Below are positions 44,520 through 56,807 of a stretch of DNA of 64,000 bases, piece after piece. The position numbers and the translations under genes were made by a program. Source of the stretch: an uncultured delta proteobacterium. GTDB taxonomy: Bacteria; Desulfobacterota; Binatia; UBA9968. Below the pieces are notes generated by a model, which saw nothing but the letters and a program-made list of their open reading frames with translations, was not told the DNA's origin and ran no database searches. Location of the stretch: positions 1 to 64,000 of the forward strand of contig CAVTUQ010000014.1 in NCBI GenBank assembly GCA_963737905.1. Reading direction: 5' to 3'. Every line of letters starts with the position of its first letter. Positions within the stretch are counted from its first letter, which is position 1.

Positions 44520-45506
44520 TCAGGCGCTCAATTCTTTGACCATCCGGATCACTTTTTTCCTCGCCTCTTGAGTACCCATAGGAAGCAGAATCGGCAGGTT
44601 GAGCCCACCCTTGATAAAGGATTCCAGTTGGCTTGCGGCATTCGCGCGGTCGTTCCGGCTACGGAGTGGGCATGGACGACATCATCACTGATGAATTTCT
44701 TGGCAGCGTCCCAATCGCGCTTTGCCACGGCCGCGGCGAGCGCCTCCTGGTCTACTTTACCCCTTCCCAAGCGAATATTTTCGGCATGATGCGTATTGCG
44801 AAAGATGTATGCGAGAAACATTTTGTTGGCTTCGAGGGCTTCCTATGGATTTCCGGAAACCGAGGTCGTAACGAAACCCGCCACGTCCCGATCCGCTAAA
44901 GACTTCCCCACCTTCTCTGCGCCCTTTTTGATCTCTGTAACACATTGCGCGATATAGCCCGGCGCGCAGCCCGCTGATAGTAGCACGCCGTCGCCGATCT
45001 CGCCACCAAGCTGGAACATTCTCGACCGCACCGCCGTCACGTACATTTTGATGGGCTTGACGGTACAAAGCCCATCTTCGCGCCGTTCACCCGAAACATT
45101 TCGCCCTGGAAATTAACAGTCTCTCGCCGCTCAGAAACTGCCGCAAAATCTCGACATACTCGCGCATCGTTTTCAGTGGTCGTGGCGACTCTATGCCCGC
45201 TTCCTTCAACGCCGCCGCGTTACCGGTGCCCGGGCTGGCGATGACCCGGCCCGGCGCGAACTCTTCCATGGTCGCAAGGGACATCGCAGAAATAATCGGA
45301 TGACGCGAGTATGGGCTCATCGGCGCCGGAGCGACTTTGATTCTCCTGGTCGATGCGAGCAGCGCCATGGAAGTTGTGAGCGAGTCTCGAAAGCAAAGAT
45401 GATCCGACATCCAGATCGATTCCATGCCGCTCTCATCGGCCAGCTGCGCCAGCTCGATCATCTCCTGGATCGGATAGAATCCATCAAAGCAGAGCCCGAC
45501 ACGCAT
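44520..45506 (-). CDS. LLM class (Mer-like) oxidoreductase, multiply frameshifted
   Basis: MRVGLC...ESIWMSDH...PYSRHP...PGRV; later frames give YVTAVRSRMFQLGGEIGDGV and DDVVHAHSVAGT. Confidence 0.8.
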
Positions 45507-45518
45507 AACACCTCCTAC

Positions 45519-46641
45519 CTAGAATCCCTCGTGTAATATCTTCCGCATGTTCTCGGGACGAACCCCTGCCAGTCCCATCTTTTCCACGGTAAGTCCCTCT
45601 TTCCGGTAATCCGTCCGGCTCACCACCGAGGCAAGAGTGATCAGCGCGTCGATTACCGGCGTGTTTATGCCGAGTAATCTACCGATCTCCGCCATGGGCA
45701 CGAGGCCATAGCCCACGTCTTCCTTGATGTAGCGATGATCTAGCGTCTTGGGCGACTTGATCGTTCGGTTAGGCTCGCTATCATTGATGGCGCGGTAAAT
45801 CGATCCGCTTGCTCGCTTGCCTCCTCCGAAGTGAGCCCGGCTTGATAAAAGATATCGACGAAACCGGAGAGGCTTCAGACCCAAGACTGCTTGACGATCT
45901 CCAGACGTTCTTTGTCGACTTCCTCAATCCACGCCGCGATTGCCCGGGTAATCCCCTCCCGATAGTAATAGAAGTCGCCGCCGCTCTTTCTCAATCCATC
46001 CCGCGTTACCGAGCATCCCGGCCGGATGCATGATCGCATTGATATTGGCGAATCCCGTTTCAATGACGTTCGCGGCGGGGATCACATTTGGATAAATTTC
46101 CTTGAATCTCCCGCACCAGATTCCGCCGAGGTGTCTTTACCCGGAAAGGCCGCGCAGCGAAGTGGGTCGTGCGGCGATAAATTTCGACCCGTGCTGATCG
46201 AGGCATGCGGCAAATATAGGTCAGGGTAACGGTCTCACATAATTTGAATTTTCGCCTTGGCACACCCAAGCACTGCGGAGGATCTTCGCGAAATGAAGGG
46301 ACCCGCCGGTATGTCCTGGGTTGAACAGAATTCGCTGACCGTCGGTAAGAGAGCTGTGCCAGGTTCTTCGCCAGATATTCATGGGCAACAGCCGGAGCAG
46401 CGATGATAATGAGGTCGGCGCCGTTCACCACCGGCGGTAAATGCGGGCTGACCAAGAACGGCGCCGCAAAGTTCTCTACGCCGTCTTCCACGAGCTCGAT
46501 CCCACCGCGCTCGGCAATCGGATTCAACGTGCTCTCCGAGCGGGAAAAAAGCCGGATTTCAAAACCGCGAAGGGTGAGATCGGCCGCGACCGCGCAACCC
46601 CCATTGCCGGCACCGAGAACTGCGAACTTTTTTATCGACAT
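45519..46641 (-). CDS. NAD/NADP octopine/nopaline (opine) dehydrogenase family, multiply frameshifted
   Basis: VLGAGNGGCAVAADL, CETVTLTYICR, FYYYREGIT, DKERL, HRYIKEDVGYGLVP. Confidence 0.82.
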
Positions 46642-46674
46642 GAGGTTATTCCAGGTTTTCCGTGAAGAAGCACT

Positions 46675-46760
46675 CACCGCAGAGGCACAGAGTTCGCAGA
46701 GATCGGAGAACTTTTTCAATTGAGAACTCTTTACTCCGCGTCCTCCGCGCCTCCGCGGTG
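46675..46760. repeat. Palindrome built from 9-mer tandem repeats
   Basis: CACCGCAGAG-GCACAGAG-TTCGCAGAG ... CTCCGCGTC-CTCCGCGC-CTCCGCGGTG; a related half-run lies near 47972-47998. Confidence 0.75.
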
Positions 46761-46808
46761 CAATCTCCGACGACTGCGATCTTTCTGATAGACATAAGAA
46801 ATGGAAAG

Positions 46809-47966
46809 TTACGAGTCGAGGCGATATTGTTTCAGCTTATCTTCATCCAATTCAATTCCGAGGCCGGGCTTCCTAGAAACTAGAATGTCGCCATCGTTAT
46901 ATCCGAATGCTTCTTTGATGATATCGTCTTGGTAGTAAATCCCCGCGATCCCTTTCGTGCCGGTGCCCTTCGGCGTGGAAACCGGGACGACACAACCGAA
47001 AGTCACCACTGCCGTTGACGCCGCAAGGTGAATGTTCGCCGCGTTGCCGACGCCGGTTTCGACGGAGCCATTGACATTGCACTTGAGCCCCGCCGCCTCG
47101 GCAACCGCGGCGACTTTTTTGGCTTTAAAAATTCCGCCGGGTTTGGTGGTGTAGATAGAGATCATATCCGCGGCTTTCTTGTGCGCAATCTCCATCACGT
47201 CTTGTGGTGTCCAGGCGCTTTCGTCAGCCATGATCGGCGTATCGACCCGTCTTGCAACCTCCGCCATCTGATCGATGCCCTCCACCGGCTGTTCCATATA
47301 GAGCAGGTCGTACTCTGCCATCGCTTTGGTCACCTGGACCGCTACTTTTGGCGTTGGATATCCCTGATTGGCATCCATGCAGATCTTGGTTTCGGAACCT
47401 AGCGCCTCGCGCATGCGCCGGACCAGTTCCACGTCCCGCCGTGGATCAACGCCGCCTTTGAGTTTGATCGTCTTGACTCCTTCGGACTTTGCTTGCAGCG
47501 CCTCTTCAACGGCTTTTTCGATCTCCATCAAGCCCAGGCTGTGAGCAATGCTAATGCGGTCTCGAAAACAGCCGCCCAAAAATTGATAGGCGGGCACTTG
47601 CATCGCTTTGCCGGCGACGTCATAAAGCGCCATATCGATGGCAGCCTTGGCATAGGGATAGCCTTTGACGCTCTTGTCCATAGAGGCGTGTATGGTTTCA
47701 AAGCGCCGCGGGTCTTGATCTTTCAATGCCGGCGCAAGAATATCATTGATGATGTGCGCCGTGGTCTGCGGCGTTTCACCGAAATACTTCCCGTGATCCC
47801 CTCCCCAGTCTTTCAAAACCGGAGCTTCACCAAGACCCACCAATCCGTCGTCCGTGTGCAACTTGATAATCACGTAAACGCCAATGGAGGTTGTCAGGCT
47901 TGCCCACTGATGCACCCGGCGGGTCGGGAGACGAATCGGTATGGTTTCGATTCTAGTGATCTTCAT
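46809..47966 (-). CDS. Muconate cycloisomerase/dipeptide epimerase-like enolase superfamily enzyme
   Basis: GLGEA, AAIDMALYD, KLKGG, MDANQG, EQP, ADES, PGLGIELDE. Confidence 0.88.
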   Translation of the reverse strand: MKITRIETIPIRLPTRRVHQWASLTTSIGVYVIIKLHTDDGLVGLGEAPVLKDWGGDHGKYFGETPQTTAHIINDILAPALKDQDPRRFETIHASMDKSVKGYPYAKAAIDMALYDVAGKAMQVPAYQFLGGCFRDRISIAHSLGLMEIEKAVEEALQAKSEGVKTIKLKGGVDPRRDVELVRRMREALGSETKICMDANQGYPTPKVAVQVTKAMAEYDLLYMEQPVEGIDQMAEVARRVDTPIMADESAWTPQDVMEIAHKKAADMISIYTTKPGGIFKAKKVAAVAEAAGLKCNVNGSVETGVGNAANIHLAASTAVVTFGCVVPVSTPKGTGTKGIAGIYYQDDIIKEAFGYNDGDILVSRKPGLGIELDEDKLKQYRLDS

Positions 47967-48025
47967 CTTTTTTCTGCGAACTTTGCGTTCTTTGCGTTAA
48001 AGATTCTCTTCTCCCTCTTGCGTGC

Positions 48026-49139
48026 TTAGCCGACTCTCAACAATGTGTCGGTAGGCGTGTGGTCAGAGAGCAGTTCGCATCCTGTCTCGGTAACGCAAAA
48101 CATGTCTTTGTTCTGCATTCCGAATCTACCAGGGATATAAACCAGCGGTTCAAACGCCCCTACCATCCCGGCTTCGACGATCTCATCGCCATAACGACCC
48201 ATGTACGGCTCTTCGTGAAGATGCAAGCCGATGCCATGGGCAACAAAACTGATGGGCTCTAGCCCCAGCTCGCTGAACTTTTTCAGAAACGTCTGGTAAA
48301 TCTCTTTGCAACGAGCGCCCGGCTTGATCATGTCCATCACGAGATATTTGCAAGCGATCAAATTCGCCCAAATCTTCTCCTGCTCGGCGGTCGGCTGGCC
48401 GACCACGGCGGTGCGGCAAACGCCGGCCAGATAACCGCTTTTTTGGCCGAAGATCTCCATGCGGATCAGATCGCCCGCCTTCAGTTTCCGATCGGTCGGC
48501 CCGACGTTGGGAAATTGGCTGCGCTCGCCCGATGCGATGATCATGAGCTTGTAATTTTCCGCTCCTCCGGCGAAAAGCGAACTGAGCAGCAAGCCGGCGA
48601 GATCCATTTCGCTTATTCCCGCTCTTGCCTGGCTCAACGTATCGCCGATGGCCTTGTCGGTGAGCTTGCTCAACGAACGAAGCAGCGCCAGCTCGTTGAC
48701 GGTTTTGACCTGCCGCGCCTTGTTAAAAATCGCATCGGCCGCCGAACCACGTAACAGCCGGAAGATTCTTTTCCAATGCCGCGAAATCTTTGGCAGGAAG
48801 AAATTCCATCTCGATGCCGACCTTCGCCCGGTCAAGCTTGAGATCTTTCAACGCTTCGGCGAGTTTGTCCATCGGATCATCCGTGAACTCCCGATAGACG
48901 CGCAGATCGTCTATCCCGGCGTGGGCTTTGACCGTGTTGGCCTCCATATCGATGGCGACCATGGAGATTCGCCCATCTGCCGTCATGATACAGAGGGCAT
49001 GGCGCCAGCGCATCAAAGATTGTGACGGTACGACAAAGCCCGATACATACGTCACATTCTCCGGCGATACGGCAACAATGGCGTCGAGCCCCGCGTCTTG
49101 GATGCGCCGTAGAAGTCGCGCGATGATTTCTTGGTCCAC
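48026..49139 (-). CDS. M24 family (creatinase/Xaa-Pro peptidase-like) hydrolase, frameshift near 48745
   Basis: Creatinase_N-like SPENVTYVSG in ORF 48723-49139; RQVKT, HGIGLHLHEEP, AFEP in ORF 48026-48835. Confidence 0.82.
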
Positions 49140-49160
49140 AGTGATATCGCCTGCGCTCGT

Positions 49161-50276
49161 TCAAAAGCCCGCAAAGTGCTCGGCCTTTACTTTGCGTTCC
49201 GCCACCCTCTTCCCCACTCTTTGCAACTCCCCCACAAACGCCACGGAATCGAGTTGTTGCACGTTCGTGGGCTCCACGTCGTCCAGACCCAGCTCGTCCA
49301 ACCCACCGCGGGTCAGCTCGCCGTTGTAACGCACATAAGTGAAAAACTTGTGCCTAACGGGTCCCCGTTTTCCGATCATGTCACCCACTTCTCTGTCCAA
49401 AAGATCACCCGCCAAACAATTACCAAAGACTCGGCATAGAAAATCCTGTTCGTTCAGCGCCGCAAACATTAAGGCAGACGGAATCGAGGTCGCGTTGTAC
49501 AGGACGTTCATTTCGTTGGGTTGAAGATCCGCGTTGGCGTACGGGCTCGTCCCTGTTCCGACGGAAACCACCAGCATTTTGTCCTCGCCGGCGAGCCAGT
49601 TGAGATTGTAGGGCTCCACCGTAGCCATGAGGAACGCCTGGAAGGAGGGGTTATTGTACATGGTTATCCCGCCGTCAACAAAAATAAATTCTTTCTCGCC
49701 GACTTTCACCATTTCCGGCGGAAAATAAGTGGGCGCCGCCGTGCTGGCGCGAACTAACTGCCAAAGGGGAAGATTCAGATTGCAATCCGCCCGGCTACAA
49801 TCATTGTATTTCGCGCCTGGGTTGTTCGACACCGGCCAGGGAGAATCCGTGGATGCATTGCGTAATACCATCATAAGAAGGGCTTTCAGCTTGTCGCTTC
49901 CCAGAGTTGTTTCCGCGCCAAACTCAGCCTGTAGCCGGGCCGATAACTTTTCACTTTGAAACTTGTGCCGATAGTACCGATCGAGTAGAGACGCTTTGTC
50001 AAACATCTCCGTGCCGTTTTGCAGGTAGAAATTACGAATCCGATCTACCGTCATGCCCCAGGAAAGACAGGCGGCGATGATCGCTCCTGTGCTAGTGCCG
50101 GCGAAAAAGTCGAAATAGTCGGCCAGAACAAATTCTTTTCCCTGGCCCGATTTCGGCCGCAACAGTTCCTCAATCCTCGCCAATATCTCGACGGTCAACA
50201 TTCCACGGATACCGCCACCGTCCAGCGCCAGAATTTTCTTCTGACCTCCGGCTTGTATCTTCTCCGCCAGGCTCAT
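49161..50276 (-). CDS. Patatin-like phospholipase
   Basis: LALDGGGIRG, GTSTG, RASTAAPTYF, FVDGG; intact Ser-Asp dyad; no signal peptide. Confidence 0.93.
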   Translation of the reverse strand: MSLAEKIQAGGQKKILALDGGGIRGMLTVEILARIEELLRPKSGQGKEFVLADYFDFFAGTSTGAIIAACLSWGMTVDRIRNFYLQNGTEMFDKASLLDRYYRHKFQSEKLSARLQAEFGAETTLGSDKLKALLMMVLRNASTDSPWPVSNNPGAKYNDCSRADCNLNLPLWQLVRASTAAPTYFPPEMVKVGEKEFIFVDGGITMYNNPSFQAFLMATVEPYNLNWLAGEDKMLVVSVGTGTSPYANADLQPNEMNVLYNATSIPSALMFAALNEQDFLCRVFGNCLAGDLLDREVGDMIGKRGPVRHKFFTYVRYNGELTRGGLDELGLDDVEPTNVQQLDSVAFVGELQRVGKRVAERKVKAEHFAGF

Positions 50277-50290
50277 AACCATGCTCTCCT

Positions 50291-52240
50291 TTACCAAAGA
50301 AGATTGGTGTCGAGGATGTATACTCGACCGGAGTATTTTTGCACGGTCTCATACATGTGCTCCGTGCCTCCAGGCCCATCCCCGCCTTTGCGGTTCCACA
50401 AGCAAACAAAGCGAACTTTATCGGGTCCCCAGGAGAGTGCCGTATACAGTTGCCACAGATTATCCCGGTCGTATGCATTGGCTCCTTTGGGAGTTGGGCC
50501 GAATTCATCAGGCATCACAAACAGCTTGGTGTTAGGGTTGTCCTTCACCTGATAAAAGCGATCCGTCCAATTACCTGGAGCAAAGGCCACAGATTTTTGA
50601 ATAAAAGTCGGCTCGTCAAAAGGAATGCGCAACTCCAGCTTTAACCCGCGCGCAAGGCAAGCCTCGGCAAAAAGCAAATCGCCGCCGCAGGCACCGCCGC
50701 AAAGCCCCAAATCCTCCGGCCCGGCTTTCAACGCGTCTAATTTATCCGCGATCGCTTTTGCTGCAATCGGTTCCTTGTCGGCAGGGAATCGCGGCTCTTT
50801 GCGGTCCCGTGCGTCGATCATATGCCCGCTGAAAAGAAAAACCTGCCGGGGCGTCCATCGCGATTCGGGACGTGTCACTCGCGCCAAAGCCCGGTCGACA
50901 ATTTCCAGACAACTCTGGACTTCCGCGGGCCGAAAACCAAGGTCTTTGTATAAGAGAAGCTGCTCACGAGACGAATTCAGCTTGAACCAATCCCCATCGG
51001 CGACAGCGACGGCGCTCTTCAAAGCCGCTTCAACCACTTGCTTCTGACTGGACAAGCCTTCCAACTCTGCTAGTGTAGCGCGCGCCCAATAGTCCTTGGA
51101 GTCCCGCTCTAACGCTCCCCGAACCGCCCAGCGAACTCCGCCCTCCATTTCCTTCCGCAATCCTAGCTGTTCTTCGCTGCCCGTTAGGTGAGCCCGCAGA
51201 TGCATCAGCGCCACCGCGTTGATGCCTGAGTAGTAGTGCGAGGGATTTTTACGAAATCCTGTGGTATAAACTTCAATTACCTCTTGCAGCAAAGCATCAT
51301 CAGCTGCCGCATCTTGCCGCATTTGCTCCACCGTCTTTCCTTCCGCACGCCAACCACCCATCCAACTGTCCTTCTCCACCCGACCTAAAAGCGCCCAGCT
51401 TTCCGAATCGTCAGGAATGTCCTTTGCCAAATCTTGGAGCCATTTCCTCGCCGCATCGCTCTTCTTCATCCGGCCCAACAAAAGTCCCTTTTGACGGCGA
51501 CTTTCGTGATCATTCGGAGAAAGCATCAACGCTTTCTCATATTGACCGAGTGCCAGAGCAAATTGTCCCAGAGAGCGCAGGGCATTACCCGCGCTTCGAT
51601 AGGCCTCAACGCGAAGACCAATATTCGGGGCTTCTTCCGCAAGTACCAGAATATCACCAGGACGATTTCCTTTTTTCGCAATTTCGATCCGCAGGGCCCA
51701 TAACCAGAACTGCTTCGCCCCTTCCACTTGCAACTGCATGAAATGCGGCTCTTTGAGGGAGGGCAACAGATGATAGACCGGACTGATCTTCCTTTCGTAC
51801 CAGGAATCCATCGTCTCCGTGGCAAATGCGGCGAGCGCCTTCTTGTCATCCTCCAACCGCTCGGGATCAGGGATAGCGGCCGCCGAAGGATTTTCCTTTA
51901 TCGAGTATCGCAGCGACCGGTCGGTATAGAGATCGAATGGCATGTAATCGCGCCGGCACCTGATGCCGATGACGCCGCGCGCCCGGAGAGCATGGCGCAC
52001 ACCGAGCTCGTACCAGACATTTGGGTTGTCGATGGAAAGATCGGCGACGACCAGATCGGCAAGCAGCAGCTCCTGGAACATGTCCGTGCGAATGTCTCCC
52101 GCACGCATTTCCTCGTCTGCACGGAAAACTTCAAAGCCGGCGCCTTCAAGCGCCGGCTTGATCAGATCACTGTAAACCCGGTTGAAATCGATCTGTTCTT
52201 TGGTGCCGTACGGCATCACTACAAACGCGTGGTATGCCAT
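50291..52240 (-). CDS. DUF4071 (MAP3K TRAF-binding/ASK1-like) protein: N-terminal nucleoside deoxyribosyltransferase/TIR-like domain, TPR region, C-terminal SLOG-like domain
   Basis: AFVVMPYG...RADEE...DLVVADLSIDNPNVWYELGVRHA; LLGRVEKD, YYSGINA, DYWARATLAE; FSGHMID...GGACGGDLLFAE...WNRKGGDGPGGT. Confidence 0.85.
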   Translation of the reverse strand: MAYHAFVVMPYGTKEQIDFNRVYSDLIKPALEGAGFEVFRADEEMRAGDIRTDMFQELLLADLVVADLSIDNPNVWYELGVRHALRARGVIGIRCRRDYMPFDLYTDRSLRYSIKENPSAAAIPDPERLEDDKKALAAFATETMDSWYERKISPVYHLLPSLKEPHFMQLQVEGAKQFWLWALRIEIAKKGNRPGDILVLAEEAPNIGLRVEAYRSAGNALRSLGQFALALGQYEKALMLSPNDHESRRQKGLLLGRMKKSDAARKWLQDLAKDIPDDSESWALLGRVEKDSWMGGWRAEGKTVEQMRQDAAADDALLQEVIEVYTTGFRKNPSHYYSGINAVALMHLRAHLTGSEEQLGLRKEMEGGVRWAVRGALERDSKDYWARATLAELEGLSSQKQVVEAALKSAVAVADGDWFKLNSSREQLLLYKDLGFRPAEVQSCLEIVDRALARVTRPESRWTPRQVFLFSGHMIDARDRKEPRFPADKEPIAAKAIADKLDALKAGPEDLGLCGGACGGDLLFAEACLARGLKLELRIPFDEPTFIQKSVAFAPGNWTDRFYQVKDNPNTKLFVMPDEFGPTPKGANAYDRDNLWQLYTALSWGPDKVRFVCLWNRKGGDGPGGTEHMYETVQKYSGRVYILDTNLLW

Positions 52241-52579
52241 ATAAGCCTCAACTTAGCTTGCCTGAAGCGTTCCTTGGTAACACCAAACTCGATGGCGGGG
52301 TCGCCCCGTCATCCTGCATCCTGAAAAAGATCTGGCTCAGGACAGCGTGCCGACATACCGATTCTTGCGTTCCGTGGTCATAGTTCCGATGTTTGTTGGA
52401 ACCAAACGCTGAATGAGAGTTTGTCGCGATCTATTCGACGGTCTACTATGCCGCGCTTAAAACGCCACGACAGACCCGGCGCCGAGAAGTTTATCACCTT
52501 CAGCTTCAAACAAGAATCGCTCCGTATACGTGGCTCCCAAACTGCAAGTCGCCTTACCGGCCAGTACACCGACAGTAAT

Positions 52580-53325
52580 TCAATAAAAAACGTTACCGCC
52601 ATCGACCAAGAAAGTTTGGCCCGTGACAAAGTCGCTGTCCGACGAGGCGAGATAGACGAGAACGCCGAGCAAATCTTCCGGGGTTTGGAGTCTCTTGATG
52701 GAGCGTGCCTTGAGCTGGAACTCGGTAAACTCTTTCGGCGCGTTCATGGCCCTCGTGTTGAACCAAACCCGGCGCGATGGCATTCACACAGATACCGAAC
52801 TCACCCACTTCGCGCGCCAGAGATCTTGTCATCCCGACCAAGCGCGGCTTTCGATGCCACGTAATGCAAAAACAATGGCGTACCAGCAAAGACGGTGGAT
52901 GATGATATGTTGATGATCTTCCCGCTTCGCTGCTGCTTCATCTGGGGAAAGACCGCCTTGGCGCACAAGAACGGGCCTTTGATATTGACCGCCGAGACTC
53001 GGTCCCACTCCTCGGCGGATATTTCATAAAATGGATGGCGTTGGATGGTGAGGAAAATCGCCGCGTTGTTGACGAGGATATCGATGCGGCCGAAGGCCCG
53101 TACCGCTTCTGTCGCCATTCGCGCCGTATCCTCTTCCTGAGAGACATCTACCTTCAAGGCTATGGCCTTACCGCCCGCAGCGGTAATCTCCTTGACGACG
53201 TTTTCGCCGTCGAGAATGTCGGCGATGACGACGGCCGCGCCCTCCGCGGCGAGCCGGCGACAATAAGCGGCGCCGATGTGCCGCGCACCGCCCGTGACAA
53301 TGGCGACCTTGCCACCCAACCTCAT
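52580..53325 (-). CDS. SDR family oxidoreductase, frameshifted near 52840 and 52775
   Basis: TGGARHIG, NNAA, HYVASK; later frames give VNAIAPG and FVTGQTFLVDGG. Confidence 0.87.
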
Positions 53326-55141: not shown

Positions 55142-56716
55142 CTACAGCTTCAAATCTTCTTTCATCACCTGCCAGCAATTACGACCGGATCCTGCAATCA
55201 CGGCGTTCGCAGGGTGCGTGGCGACCCCAACCTGATAGAGCCCTTCAATAGGCGTGCGATAGCCTGAGAGCTCCTCTATCGGCCGGTTGGCTCCCATCTG
55301 TTTAGCAATCTTGCGCGCCACCCAAACCGAACCTCGTCGCATATGAGGCCAGCGGCCGGAAATGTAGAATGGATCCATCGCGACTTTCATCTCGATGTTC
55401 TCATCCGTGAGATTGGTGGCGTAGCGGCGCCAAATCCCAAGAACCGACTCCATAAAATCATTTTTGAGCTTCACCCAGTCTTCGGGCTCTTTACCCTTGA
55501 GTTGAAAAGGGACCGGCATGAAGAGCGACGCCGTATGTTTCGGCTTCGGCGCCTGCAACGGATCGAACGCCGTCGGGCAAATGGTATGGAGAGAAACGTG
55601 CTCCGGAAACTCACCCTCACGAATTTCTTGCCACATCGCATCCAGATCGGCAGGTTTCTCGGGCCCCATGTTAACGCTCATGGCTTGCCCAACCGCCGCA
55701 TCCTCTGCTTCAAACAAGGCGTAACGCACGGGCACCTTAAGCGCCAGATGGGCCTGAAAATAAGAAAATTCGTCCACTTCAATCGCCCTTATTTTTTCGG
55801 AAAATGTCCTCGGTAGATTCTCCTCGCCAACCATGTCGATAAACGTACAATAAGGATCGACGTTGGAGACAACGGCGAGGTTAGCCTTCCACTGACGCCC
55901 GTCGCGCAACCGCACGCCGGCGGCTCTCCCCTTCTCGACCAGAATCTTCTCAACATGGTGGACAGCGCGAATTTGACCGCCGTTATGAACGTAGGCGCGC
56001 TGGAGCACCTGGGCGATGGAGTGAGCGCCGCCGCGAGCCAGCTCCGGCTTTTCATCGCCGGCAATCATCTTCAAAACTTCGATGCCGCCGCCTTCGTAAT
56101 CCACTGCCACGCCCCGGGGGATCGCCATCTGTGAAAGCACCAGAGTCTTGACAACATCATTTTCGAACAGCTCATCAACGACTTCCCTGGGCGTCATCTG
56201 CCACAGGCGGTGGAAGTCTTTGCCGGCGGGATAGGACGTTAGCTTTTGATTTCTCCCGTCATTCAATTGGGGCGTTTGATAGTAGCAGGGAATTAGAAAG
56301 TCACGGATGAGGAGGTGGTACTTGTCGTGGGTCTGCGACCACGTCACCGCGTCGTTGGGCGAGAATTTCGCTACGGAACTGACTGTTTCCGCAAGCGATT
56401 GATGCTGGGACAACGATCGCCCGTCCGCTAGCAGCAATGAGCTCACCACTGGCGGGGAGACGAACTCTGCGTGGTGCGCGGTATCCCACTTGAGTTCTTT
56501 CCATACAGGCGAGATTCCTCGATTGTCTTGAAAATAAGCGAGGGTATTGTGCCAATACCCCGGCATTGTGATCTCTTCACTGGCAAGCCGGCCGCCGTTC
56601 TCCAGCCGGCTTTCGCAGATCACGGTCCTGAGACCGGCCATTCCCAAATACGTGCCGAGAGCAAAGTTATTCTGCCCAGCGCCGATGAGAATGACGTCCC
56701 ACTCCTGATCAAGCAT
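55142..56716 (-). CDS. Phytoene desaturase-like FAD-dependent oxidoreductase (divergent paralog)
   Basis: IGAGQNN, DPLQAP, YRTPIEGLYQVGVATHP; colinear with 53420-55042. Confidence 0.85.
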   Translation of the reverse strand: MLDQEWDVILIGAGQNNFALGTYLGMAGLRTVICESRLENGGRLASEEITMPGYWHNTLAYFQDNRGISPVWKELKWDTAHHAEFVSPPVVSSLLLADGRSLSQHQSLAETVSSVAKFSPNDAVTWSQTHDKYHLLIRDFLIPCYYQTPQLNDGRNQKLTSYPAGKDFHRLWQMTPREVVDELFENDVVKTLVLSQMAIPRGVAVDYEGGGIEVLKMIAGDEKPELARGGAHSIAQVLQRAYVHNGGQIRAVHHVEKILVEKGRAAGVRLRDGRQWKANLAVVSNVDPYCTFIDMVGEENLPRTFSEKIRAIEVDEFSYFQAHLALKVPVRYALFEAEDAAVGQAMSVNMGPEKPADLDAMWQEIREGEFPEHVSLHTICPTAFDPLQAPKPKHTASLFMPVPFQLKGKEPEDWVKLKNDFMESVLGIWRRYATNLTDENIEMKVAMDPFYISGRWPHMRRGSVWVARKIAKQMGANRPIEELSGYRTPIEGLYQVGVATHPANAVIAGSGRNCWQVMKEDLKL

Positions 56717-56807
56717 TGACACTTCCAGTGGTAACTGAGTTTTGGTCAAGATCGGGATGACAGGTCGCTTGAAGTGTCACTCCGAGCGGTAGACTCTGTG
56801 AAAACTT

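Follow-up and report, generated by a model that had tools for sequence, protein, structure and literature searches.

The combination of a MilB-like domain with TPR-S repeats has been tied to cADPR-driven immunity only recently, by two preprints. For type VIII Thoeris, the available part of the description presents the effector ThsI as a "CMP hydrolase" domain plus the type of TPR for which Aravind's group had predicted a part in TIR signalling, and as toxic only with canonical cADPR; in this account the TIR protein alone made cADPR, and added cADPR poisoned the ThsI system (Yirmiya et al., bioRxiv 10.64898/2025.12.03.692087). In Bacillus cereus, BcTpr consists of a MilB-like glycosidase (residues 1–189) followed by TPRs (190–415), binds cADPR with a Kd of 1.9 uM, and has its catalytic residues N82 and E86 within N80-P81-N82...E86 (Liu et al., bioRxiv 10.1101/2023.05.26.542521). 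According to the same authors, a cADPR isomer is produced by the MilB-like domain of BcTpr, and not by BcTir (Liu et al., bioRxiv 10.1101/2023.05.26.542521), a result that conflicts with the division into generator and effector taken from Yirmiya et al. Among 78 operons from Burroughs and Aravind (2020), "Core Tpr alone" is the commonest class (29 operons), and four "Patatin-Tpr" and five "YpsA-Tpr" operons are counted only (Liu et al., bioRxiv 10.1101/2023.05.26.542521).

The locus described here lies in a window of 64,000 nucleotides, the whole stretch of DNA that was analysed (contig CAVTUQ010000014.1 of assembly GCA_963737905.1, from an uncultured member of the Binatia), and is read, with confidence somewhat above even, as an operon of two intact genes belonging to a widespread and modular conflict system of TIR-associated nucleotide signalling, akin to type VIII Thoeris and BcTir/BcTpr, with a SLOG domain and a patatin added and the TIR missing. 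The core gene (P0001) is a 649-aa ORF at positions 50291–52240 of the minus strand, stop codon included, and the patatin-like phospholipase gene (P0002) follows it on the same strand. Counted from a TTG start, P0002 extends over 49161–50297 and contains two candidate ATGs, at 50280–50282 and 50274–50276; the second leaves a 9-nt spacer to the AAGGAG ribosome-binding site (50286–50291, minus strand), which was read directly from the sequence, and agrees with the MSL... starts of homologues. With this ATG as the start, the patatin gene spans 49161–50276 and encodes 371 aa, and the gap is 14 nt, so that the original prediction of two co-directional genes about 15 nt apart was correct. The overlap of the ribosome-binding site with the upstream stop codon, also predicted, is present, AAGGAG sharing the last A of the core-gene TAA (50291–50293); with this overlap and the 14-nt gap, P0002 is apparently translationally coupled to P0001.

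Each gene has thousands of homologues, and both are therefore real rather than chance ORFs. The core gene is present as a single copy in the genome; its product has full-length homologues at 65–94% identity, the three-domain architecture persists down to ~31% identity, and 522 clusters (50% identity) match at E < 1e-30. The neighbours, noted earlier as unrelated catabolic genes, are metabolic genes (FAD oxidoreductase, SDR, M24 peptidase, enolase-superfamily and octopine-DH-like genes), and in a Pfam scan of the 10 flanking ORFs (43.4–56.7 kb) nine were metabolic or transport genes, one had no Pfam match, and none carried a CD-NTase domain. No mobile-element genes lie beside the pair in the window and, with its metabolic surroundings and conserved synteny, the locus does not form part of a defence island. 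Several neighbouring genes within the window are also split.

For the 649-aa protein, an N-terminal NDT/TIR-like domain, a central TPR region and a C-terminal SLOG-like domain had been proposed, and these three calls were borne out by Pfam, AF2 models, Foldseek and VIA; the motifs quoted for it (NPNVWYELG, YYSGINA, DYW, FSGH and GGACGGDLLF) are all present. The N-terminal domain (residues 1 to ~150; 51791–52240, minus strand) gave an AF2 model with a pLDDT of 75.9, whose best Foldseek matches were MilB structures (4ohb/4ohr, E 1.6e-5); VIA returned DNPH1 (Z 14.8, rmsd 2.1, 124 residues), NDT (Z 13.8) and MilB (Z 13.2), DNPH1 and NDT being in a near tie with the TIR fold (RPPT-TIR and SARM1 TIR, both Z 13.2). 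The fold, together with a Glu at the catalytic position, where the helix following the third strand begins, places the domain in the NDT/DNPH1/MilB superfamily; no Pfam NDT family matched P0001, so this membership holds at the level of fold. The Glu is residue 78 (52007–52009), within the NPNVWYELG motif (residues 72–80; 52001–52027, minus strand), of which N74, W76, Y77, E78, L79 and G80 are invariant across 61 sequences, and the N domain is the best-conserved part of P0001. As a Pfam TIR_2 domain it scored 13.4 bits (cut-off 28, E 0.11), the PADLOC "TIR effector" model PDLC00733 reached only 2.6e-5, and our own TIR HMM did not overlap the N domain in any of 160 loci.

The TPR-S/MAP3K_TRAF_bd (DUF4071) repeats occupy residues 206–439 (50924–51625, minus strand), where TPR-S (PF20308) matched with an E-value of 3.4e-18 and 66.6 bits (gathering cut-off 27.6). 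The suggested link to the ASK1-type TPR region was upheld by PF13281 (residues 266–438, E 4e-9, 36.4 bits; gathering cut-off 24.1); as a single-sequence query against PDB sequences, the TPR region matched generic TPRs only, and ASK1 was absent. This region is the least conserved in P0001 (mean 50% identity over 32 homologues). The C-terminal domain (residues 460–649; 50294–50863, minus strand), to which no Pfam family matched, was modelled by AF2 with a pLDDT of 92.2 and is YpsA-like: YpsA (2nx2) was the best Foldseek match (E 5e-7) and led the VIA entries (Z 15.6, rmsd 3.4, 159 aligned), followed by DprA, ShosA, MoCo carrier, LOG, the TRPM N-terminal region and PpnN, the next ~45 entries being all SLOG-type proteins. 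The Gly-rich loops SGH..D, GGD and GPGGT of this domain are invariant.

P0002 matched Pfam Patatin (PF01734, E 1.2e-23) and has the GGGxRG oxyanion loop, the GxSxG serine and the DG[A/G] aspartate of the family, its catalytic residues being Ser62 in GTSTG and Asp201 in DGG. The predicted integrity of the catalytic motifs holds, since DGGGIRG, GTSTG and DGG are invariant in 16/16 aligned homologues. The PADLOC phospholipase effector model PDLC00758 matched at 2.5e-46, and the PADLOC CBASS phospholipase effector models cover residues 20–353. The patatin assignment in the earlier term "CapV-like" stands, but the CapV part is a loose label: the NCBIfam CBASS_lipase equivalog NF041079 scored 124.7 bits against a cut-off of 200, and in PDB profile matches plant patatin (8e-33) fits as well as CapV (2e-30).

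A neighbourhood survey found the pairing to be conserved, and in a conflict-system context with exchangeable effectors. A patatin was located near the core gene at 37 of 80 genome loci (on the same strand and no more than 150 nt downstream at 28, farther downstream at 8 and upstream at 1), 35 loci had no patatin although 1200 nt or more were available, and 8 were too short to judge; when the survey started from patatins, at least one core domain was present at 45 of 80 metagenome loci. The gene orders comprise core followed by patatin and patatin followed by core, as well as the split-domain orders SLOG / patatin / N-TPR-S, patatin / SLOG / N-TPR-S, and N-TPR-S / LSDAT-type SLOG / patatin. In the protein P0154, a patatin 54% identical to P0002 replaces the N domain and is fused to a TPR-S-SLOG part that is 41% identical to residues 153–648 of P0001. 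Despite order changes, fissions and one fusion, N-TPR-S, SLOG and patatin remain associated with one another.

Other partners are varied. The downstream slot is filled elsewhere by caspase, SIR2_2, Tle1-like lipase, DUF4231/SLATT, TIR, CHAT giants or WD40, and N-terminal fusions to the core include AAA_35+TIR, ParA, SLATT and NB-ARC. Among 101 downstream ORFs, Pfam identified 16 TIR_2 and 9 caspase matches and PADLOC identified 9 caspases, several ThsB models and 4 SAVED_TIR; one neighbour in the set matches the ThsA STALD models of PADLOC. TPR-S-SLOG is also joined to a Ser/Thr kinase in the bacterial protein P0131 and, elsewhere, to a sigma-54 activator; these two kinds of fusion suit ordinary signalling as well as defence.

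Since a patatin (P0154) or a kinase (P0131) can take the N position on TPR-S-SLOG, this position is best regarded as an output slot, which argues against the role of signal generator given to the N domain in the original prediction. The same role is opposed by the two-domain relatives BcTpr and ThsI, characterized in the available descriptions as cADPR-activated effectors, and by the separate true TIR gene that relatives usually have and that is represented here by a remnant only. The TPR region had been cast as a sensor of phage proteins, and this too is disfavoured, TPR-S being predicted to sense NAD-derived small molecules in the available text of authors citing Burroughs and Aravind (2020). 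We propose instead that TPR-S and SLOG together would form a sensor for an ADP-ribose-type small molecule. Upon infection, a TIR protein, in this organism one encoded elsewhere in the genome, would make the signal; the bound ligand would unleash cleavage of NAD+ or nucleotides by the N-glycosidase and would also activate the patatin, whose likeliest direct partner may be the SLOG domain, so that membrane phospholipids are degraded and the infected cell would die or halt growth ahead of phage release.

No TIR_2 match occurs in the window, the nearest being at C14:120639, at a distance of ~70 kb on this contig, and our own TIR HMM likewise finds no TIR gene in the window; the proposed trigger is therefore missing in cis. 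Elsewhere in the genome, TIR_2 matches occur at nine other loci. Next to the core gene, on its upstream side, is a degraded stretch of ~300 nt (52267–52570, minus strand), left over from the C-terminal domain encoded by a membrane-anchored TIR partner gene; this remnant was detected by tblastn of the whole genome with P0272, the upstream TIR protein of locus L002. Outside its TIR domain, P0272 has its sole whole-genome match here (E 4e-9), in two pieces in different frames that are 55% identical over residues 259–291 and 37% identical over residues 296–360 of P0272, the latter piece having two in-frame stops. The same-genus genome G002 retains an intact 157-aa counterpart of the remnant, separated by 13 nt from the core gene that follows it. 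Both genes, but not the TIR domain, are kept in all three species of the genus, and TIR-less pairs persist in several Binatia genera (L001, L004, L005, L006 and L015). Against the same-genus L001, itself TIR-less, dN/dS is ~0.11 for the core gene (dN 0.143, dS 1.247) and ~0.06 for the patatin gene (dN 0.042, dS 0.667), and both are under purifying selection despite the loss of TIR. The Binatia lineage provides a stepwise record of this loss, from TIR-TM-domain through TM-domain and remnant to nothing, with the other two genes under selection throughout.

The retention of the TIR-less pair in several Binatia genera suggests that it may need no TIR at all. P0001 might then, in keeping with the original prediction, itself sense infection, its N-glycosidase making from NAD+ or a nucleotide a messenger that the SLOG domain or the patatin reads, an alternative that we regard as doubtful though worth considering. 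The selected TIR-less pairs agree with it, as do the conservation of the N domain, the synthesis of the cADPR isomer by BcTpr rather than BcTir and the prevalence of "Core Tpr alone" operons (both Liu et al., bioRxiv 10.1101/2023.05.26.542521). However, the N position behaves as an output slot, and in the available account of type VIII Thoeris the TIR alone made cADPR, which when added poisoned the ThsI system (bioRxiv 10.64898/2025.12.03.692087). Moreover, a true TIR gene is kept in most patatin-bearing relatives: by a home-made iterated HMM, with which the Pfam tally agrees in part only, TIR domains occur at 27/37 patatin-bearing loci versus 11/43 other loci, 10 of the 37 having no TIR within 6 kb. 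A specific form of the idea, held just as tentatively, is that the TIR-less Binatia pair is a self-contained immune switch, in which the MilB-like domain would make a messenger derived from NAD+ or a nucleotide that the YpsA-like SLOG domain reads in cis, directly licensing the patatin; if true, this would place generator, sensor and first effector in one polypeptide and would show Thoeris-type signalling running without TIR.

A role outside defence, in which the pair would sense an endogenous NAD+ or nucleotide metabolite and tune membrane lipids and nucleotide pools in stress or development, is unlikely. The position of the pair amid metabolic genes shows synteny between genera, the window shows no adjoining mobile-element genes, TPR-S-SLOG is fused to a Ser/Thr kinase and a sigma-54 activator, and YpsA, the closest SLOG structure, regulates cell division according to Liu et al. 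(bioRxiv 10.1101/2023.05.26.542521), all of which would suit such a role. Yet the distribution is patchy (10 of 36 same-family genomes and none of 24 in two sister families), and the corresponding site is empty in G008 and G013, holds other cargo in G007, G011 and G026, and carries core, patatin and TIR genes in G022; full-length homologues of at least 48% identity in unrelated phyla suggest horizontal spread, and death-type effectors and ThsB-like TIRs dominate the neighbour repertoire. Less likely still is an orphaned pair that lost its TIR partner, can no longer be triggered and is merely not yet degraded, for although the partner gene is a frameshifted remnant with stop codons and several neighbouring genes in the window are split, both ORFs are intact with every invariant residue kept, the dN/dS values against TIR-less L001 are low, and 3/3 species of the genus keep both genes without the TIR domain.

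In line with the original prediction, literature searches found no experimental characterization of this pairing. The P0001 family extends the MilB-like plus TPR-S pair by the SLOG domain and the patatin; as a large family with freely swapped effectors, it lends itself to asking how ADP-ribose-type signals are read by TPR-S and SLOG, how a single signal sets off two different killing activities, and whether a P0001-type system runs without TIR. The kinase-TPR-S-SLOG protein of bacteria is likewise relevant to a bacterial origin of the regulatory region of ASK1.

Among known systems, type VIII Thoeris is matched by the N-terminal MilB-like (CMP N-glycosidase) domain of P0001 and the TPR-S that follows it, which fit the available description of ThsI, and by the operon TIR gene that relatives of P0001 usually have, some of these TIRs matching ThsB models; that system requires an operon TIR gene (ThsB), whereas only a remnant is found here, and P0001 adds a C-terminal SLOG domain and a coupled patatin to the architecture described for ThsI. 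In comparison with BcTpr, N72-P73-N74-V-W-Y-E78 of P0001 has identical NPNxxxE spacing (N74/E78 versus N82/E86), but BcTpr is a 415-aa protein without SLOG whose partner is a TIR, whereas the partner of P0001 is a patatin. Kinship of P0001 to ThsI and BcTpr fits in architecture, fold and the NPNxxxE motif as printed, the comparison being with published descriptions rather than with the ThsI or BcTpr sequences. In type I Thoeris, the available introduction states that the SLOG domain of ThsA binds TIR-made 3'cADPR and turns on SIR2 (bioRxiv 10.64898/2025.12.03.692087); a SLOG domain beside a death effector is common to ThsA (SIR2-SLOG) and this locus, but the SLOG domain of P0001 is nearest to YpsA and is fused to N-glycosidase and TPR, with the lipase effector on a protein of its own. 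CapV of CBASS is described, in the part of the source available, as a patatin that cGAMP switches on through direct binding of the nucleotide and assembly into filaments; P0002 is likewise a single-domain cytoplasmic patatin of similar length, but is linked to TIR, N-glycosidase and SLOG domains rather than to a CD-NTase, which the Pfam scan of the 10 flanking ORFs did not show. The regulatory region of ASK1/MAP3K5, for which an origin in bacterial systems of this kind has been claimed in work known here through citation, shares the PF13281 match with P0001, which itself has no kinase.

The 649-aa core protein P0001 and the adjacent 371-aa patatin P0002 are encoded by two co-directional ORFs on the minus strand (50291–52240 and 49161–50276, respectively), which were found exactly where the original prediction had placed them, together with all of the motifs that it quoted from the two proteins. 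The observation was confirmed, and its interpretation as an NDT/TIR-like-TPR-SLOG protein coupled to a CapV-like patatin proved to be partly right. The junction, as read from the minus-strand sequence, comprises the TAA stop codon of the P0001 gene (50291–50293), an AAGGAG ribosome-binding site (RBS; 50286–50291) and two candidate ATG codons (50280–50282 and 50274–50276), upstream of which the patatin ORF is readable from a TTG at 50297. The second ATG, from which the 371 residues are counted, is separated from the RBS by a 9-nt spacer and agrees with the start of the homologues, leaving an intergenic gap of 14 nt. The RBS of the patatin gene overlaps the stop codon of the P0001 gene, and the two genes are closely coupled. 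The GC content is even across the region (0.53–0.56), and a simple scan of positions 48600–53000 gave a count of promoter and terminator sites not above that of shuffled sequence. The flanking genes are metabolic, encoding an FAD oxidoreductase, an SDR, an M24 peptidase, and enolase-superfamily and octopine-DH-like proteins.

Several neighboring genes are split (45087–49139 and 52378–53325): the SDR gene near the pair lies in three frames with 93–94% identity to its orthologue, the M24 peptidase gene consists of two overlapping ORFs, the octopine-DH-like gene consists of two ORFs, and the luciferase-like gene encodes 139 aa only. The versions in relatives are intact (370-aa M24 peptidase, 247-aa SDR), as are the core and patatin genes in the window; the splits are due either to indel errors in the assembly or to recent pseudogenes clustered here. 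No Pfam match at E 1e-3 was obtained for a further ORF of 535 aa (55142–56749, minus strand), which lies upstream of the FAD oxidoreductase gene.

Pfam models matched P0001 above the cut-off at residues 227–346 (TPR-S, PF20308; E 3.4e-18) and 266–438 (MAP3K_TRAF_bd, PF13281; E 4e-9), and no Pfam match was obtained for residues 450–649. A phmmer search of the TPR region against the PDB returned generic and designed TPR proteins alone, with ASK1 absent. Because the N and SLOG domains gave no meaningful hits when their sequence profiles were searched against the PDB (best E 0.35 and 0.4), fold searches were performed with models folded from 61-sequence alignments; the alignments A1 and A2 were built from usable loci (60/75), with L072 among the rows left out. 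The N domain model (pLDDT 75.9) retrieved the CMP N-glycosidase MilB first in Foldseek (E 1.6e-5), followed by nucleoside deoxyribosyltransferases (NDT), DNPH1 and TIR domains, and in VIA-align DNPH1 (Z 14.8; rmsd 2.1, 124 residues aligned) preceded NDT (13.8) and the TIRs and MilB (13.2). From these rankings, the modeled fold is assigned to the NDT/DNPH1/MilB group, with TIR domains scoring almost as high. Its identification as a bona fide TIR domain was rejected, since P0001 missed the Pfam cut-off for TIR_2 (13.4 bits vs. 28) and the matches of a local TIR HMM, built by iteration from Pfam-verified seed TIRs, at no locus overlapped the core N domain. The motif N72-P73-N74-V-W-Y-E78 is found in this domain, and N74, W76, Y77, E78, L79, and G80 are invariant in the 61-sequence alignment. 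The C domain model (pLDDT 92.2) was closest in the structure search to YpsA (Z 15.6; rmsd 3.4, 159 residues aligned), followed by DprA, ShosA, a MoCo carrier protein, LOG, the TRPM N-terminal region, and PpnN, and is clearly that of a SLOG domain. Across 32 homologues, the N domain is the closest to P0001 (mean identity 0.69), ahead of SLOG (0.61) and TPR-S (0.50).

In P0002, the DGGGIRG, GTSTG, and DGG motifs are invariant across 16 of 16 homologues, and the catalytic motifs are intact. The protein matches PADLOC models of CBASS-type phospholipase effectors (E 2.5e-46) and is equally similar to plant patatin (8e-33) and CapV (2e-30). Its identification as a CapV equivalog was rejected, as it scored 124.7 against the NCBIfam CapV model, under the cut-off of 200.

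The P0001 family is large: of 8000 candidates scored, 2798 proteins matched with an E-value no higher than 1e-3; a library clustered at 50% gave 18,849 matches at 1e-3, 4012 at 1e-10, and 522 at 1e-30, and in it the three-domain form of approximately 650 aa persists to about 31% identity. Pattern hits in the genome collection numbered 599, of which 581 were confirmed; the best 80 loci (48–77% identity) include members from Binatia, Geobacteraceae, Nitrospira, Beta- and Gammaproteobacteria, Chlorobi, Nostoc, and some archaeal bins. HMM-based counts were made from both the core and the patatin sides. Around these 80 cores, a patatin gene lies at most 150 nt downstream on the same strand at 28 loci, farther downstream at 8, and upstream at 1; it is missing from 35 that offer 1200 nt or more of space, and the remaining 8 are too short to judge. 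Starting from the patatin, a profile-based search of metagenomes yielded 80 loci with patatins 50–86% identical to P0002, 14 of which had less than 600 nt of upstream sequence in a tblastn pass. At least one core domain lies within 4 kb of the patatin at 45 of these loci (all three domains at 20, SLOG only at 9, N only at 6, N and TPR-S at 5, and other combinations at 5), and the other 35 have no core domain within that distance.

The order of the parts varies among the metagenome loci: besides core then patatin, the arrangements patatin then core (L116, L119, L129), SLOG/patatin/N-TPR-S (L134), patatin/SLOG/N-TPR-S (L158), and N-TPR-S/LSDAT-type SLOG/patatin (L114, L140) were identified. Wherever a split N-TPR-S gene is paired with the patatin (five loci), a separate SLOG gene is present as well. 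Since the linkage outlasts gene fission, re-ordering, and the exchange of one SLOG family for another, a functional triad is favored, and the gene arrangements point to the SLOG domain as the probable closest partner of the patatin. Two further forms were observed: a 641-aa protein encoded upstream of a patatin (L108:1003–2928) is apparently permuted, with SLOG followed by the N domain and TPR-S, and a related genome contains, apart from its full-length copy, a lone frame of 210 aa that shares 51% identity with the SLOG domain (residues 459–649; G032:C2:503725–504294).

At patatin-less loci, the co-directional gene downstream of the core often encodes another death-type effector. These genes encode caspases (e.g., L027, L056), WD40 or TPR proteins, a Tle1-like lipase (L058), SIR2_2 (L029), DUF4231/SLATT (L008), TIR (L067), and a patatin-TIR fusion (L063). 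Giant proteins of 1786–1855 aa are encoded directly downstream of the core at three loci (L021:8114–13474, L022:8089–13656, L075:8041–13413) and group together by BLASTP; the one scanned, from L021, contains an alpha/beta-hydrolase (DUF7379, LCAT-like), a CHAT protease, and its own TPR-S. In a Pfam tally of 101 of the 105 same-strand downstream ORFs other than patatins, which omits four ORFs longer than 1300 aa (L021, L022, L070, L075) and leaves out 79 upstream ORFs, the commonest families were TIR_2 (16) and caspase (9); PADLOC matched caspase (9), SAVED_TIR (4), and several ThsB models among the downstream non-patatin ORFs. The local TIR HMM detected a TIR domain at 38 of the 80 genome loci, comprising 27 of the 37 patatin-bearing loci and 11 of the 43 that lack a patatin.

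Exchange is also seen within the protein. P0154 (889 aa), a single representative whose 5′ end appears truncated, is a direct fusion of a patatin (54% identity to P0002) with a TPR-S-SLOG region (41% identity to residues 153–648 of P0001), in which the patatin thus replaces the N-glycosidase. P0131 (799 aa) carries a Ser/Thr protein kinase at the N position before TPR-S-SLOG, which resembles the kinase and TPR arrangement of animal ASK1, and P0193 (1212 aa) carries a sigma-54 AAA+ activator module behind the SLOG of TPR-S-SLOG. In longer relatives (P0123, P0185, P0128, P0162, P0138, P0141, P0270), the whole core is preceded by AAA_35+TIR_2, ParA/CbiA-like, DUF4231+SLATT_1, or NB-ARC modules. 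On the strength of these fusions, TPR-S-SLOG behaves as the part that stays constant, and the N position as a slot for outputs. The comparisons show a linkage of patatin, SLOG, N-TPR-S, and TIR that is conserved yet modular.

Within the Binatia, P0001 homologues were identified in 10 of 36 same-family genomes (6 of 27 genera) and in none of the 24 genomes of two sister families. The occupancy of the slot flanked by the SDR and M24 peptidase genes differs within the family (L170–L176): the slot is empty in two genomes (G008, G013), holds UbiD, NMT1-like, or octopine-DH genes in three (G007, G011, G026), core and patatin in the present genome, G000, and two others (G002, G036), and core, patatin, and a 299-aa TIR_2 protein in G022. 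Just upstream of the core in another Binatia MAG, a gene (L002:4898–5986) encodes P0272, a 363-aa protein composed of TIR, a transmembrane (TM) helix, and a C-terminal domain of approximately 110 aa. A tblastn search with P0272 against the whole of G000 matched a TIR homologue on contig C20 and window positions 52267–52570 (minus strand; E 4e-9). The latter match covers P0272 residues 259–360 only, lies directly upstream of the P0001 gene in two frames with two in-frame stops, and is a remnant of a membrane-anchored TIR partner gene. In G002, a genome of the same genus, an intact 157-aa ORF (L177:326–799, minus strand) encodes the TM helix and C-terminal domain without TIR and stops 13 nt ahead of the core gene, and in G001, likewise of this genus, just 68 nt occupy this position; an ESM Atlas search for the partner's C-terminal domain with the 157-aa protein retrieved unnamed clusters alone. 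The decay series is TIR-TM-domain, TM-domain, remnant, and nothing, and these comparisons show a loss of the cis TIR at this locus.

The genome G000 (6.7 Mb, 46 contigs, 87% complete) carries P0001 in single copy, and TIR_2 is matched at nine further loci, all outside the window. These are located on C2, C12, C19, C20, C21, C40 (two tandem TIR domains within one 292-aa frame), C42, and C14, where the match (C14:120039–121033) is frameshifted and about 70 kb from the core/patatin pair. The closest match to the partner TIR domains of relatives is C20:8203–8910 (41–45% identity). Relative to G001, dN and dS are 0.143 and 1.247 for P0001, with the core dS near saturation, and 0.042 and 0.667 for P0002; these values show both genes to be under purifying selection. 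In the comparison with the same-genus locus L001, amino-acid identity is 91% for the patatin vs. 77% for the core (dS 0.67 vs. 1.25), a gap that may reflect different gene histories, or mutational or recombination effects.

A model can be proposed in which an ADP-ribose-type messenger would be bound by TPR-S and SLOG and would elicit two outputs, cleavage of NAD+ or nucleotides by the N-glycosidase and hydrolysis of membrane lipids by the patatin, with abortive infection as the outcome; in G000, the messenger would be supplied by a TIR protein encoded at another locus, C20:8203–8910 being the best candidate. As a whole, this model is considered somewhat probable. That the N domain of P0001 itself makes the signal is unlikely, although such production is claimed for the N domain of BcTpr, a TPR protein of Bacillus cereus, in the available text of Liu et al. 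A signaling role outside defense is given only a small chance, and an orphaned remnant is slightly more improbable still.

Type VIII Thoeris is a verified system whose TIR produces canonical cADPR upon infection and whose effector, ThsI, consists of a ‘CMP hydrolase’ domain and a TPR of the type predicted by Burroughs and Aravind for TIR signaling, and halts growth when cADPR is supplied, according to the available preprint text (Yirmiya et al., bioRxiv 10.64898/2025.12.03.692087). BcTpr, as described in the portion of the preprint available, combines a MilB-like N domain with TPR, binds cADPR with a Kd of 1.9 uM, and has catalytic N82 and E86 within an N-P-N-x-x-x-E motif (Liu et al., bioRxiv 10.1101/2023.05.26.542521), the spacing of which equals that of N72-P73-N74-V-W-Y-E78 in P0001. 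The same text divides 78 operons of Burroughs and Aravind into, among others, 29 core-alone, 28 Tir-Tpr, 5 YpsA-Tpr, and 4 Patatin-Tpr (Liu et al., 10.1101/2023.05.26.542521). From these descriptions and operon counts, the building blocks, and even the patatin association, are already noted computationally. No experimental study of the pairing, or of the patatin or SLOG form, was found in the literature on Thoeris, TPR-S, patatin, SLOG, and TIR, although this architecture may already be listed in preprint figures or supplements, and titles and abstracts retrieved for DUF4071, PF13281, PF20308, and the TRAFs-binding domain held nothing on this bacterial system. In the sections available, TPR-S and patatin are not mentioned by Kaur et al. 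2020 (PMC7159879), the origin of the ASK signalosome is present merely as a citation in Kaur et al. 2021 (PMC8195603), and a ParA preprint (10.64898/2026.10.19.760177) treats DrHyd and SLOG in general terms only. The pair does not correspond to a named, tested system, nor does it represent a new category; it is a novel variant of a computationally predicted kind, related to type VIII Thoeris. It stands out by its additional SLOG domain and patatin and by the persistence, under selection, of a form that lacks the TIR.
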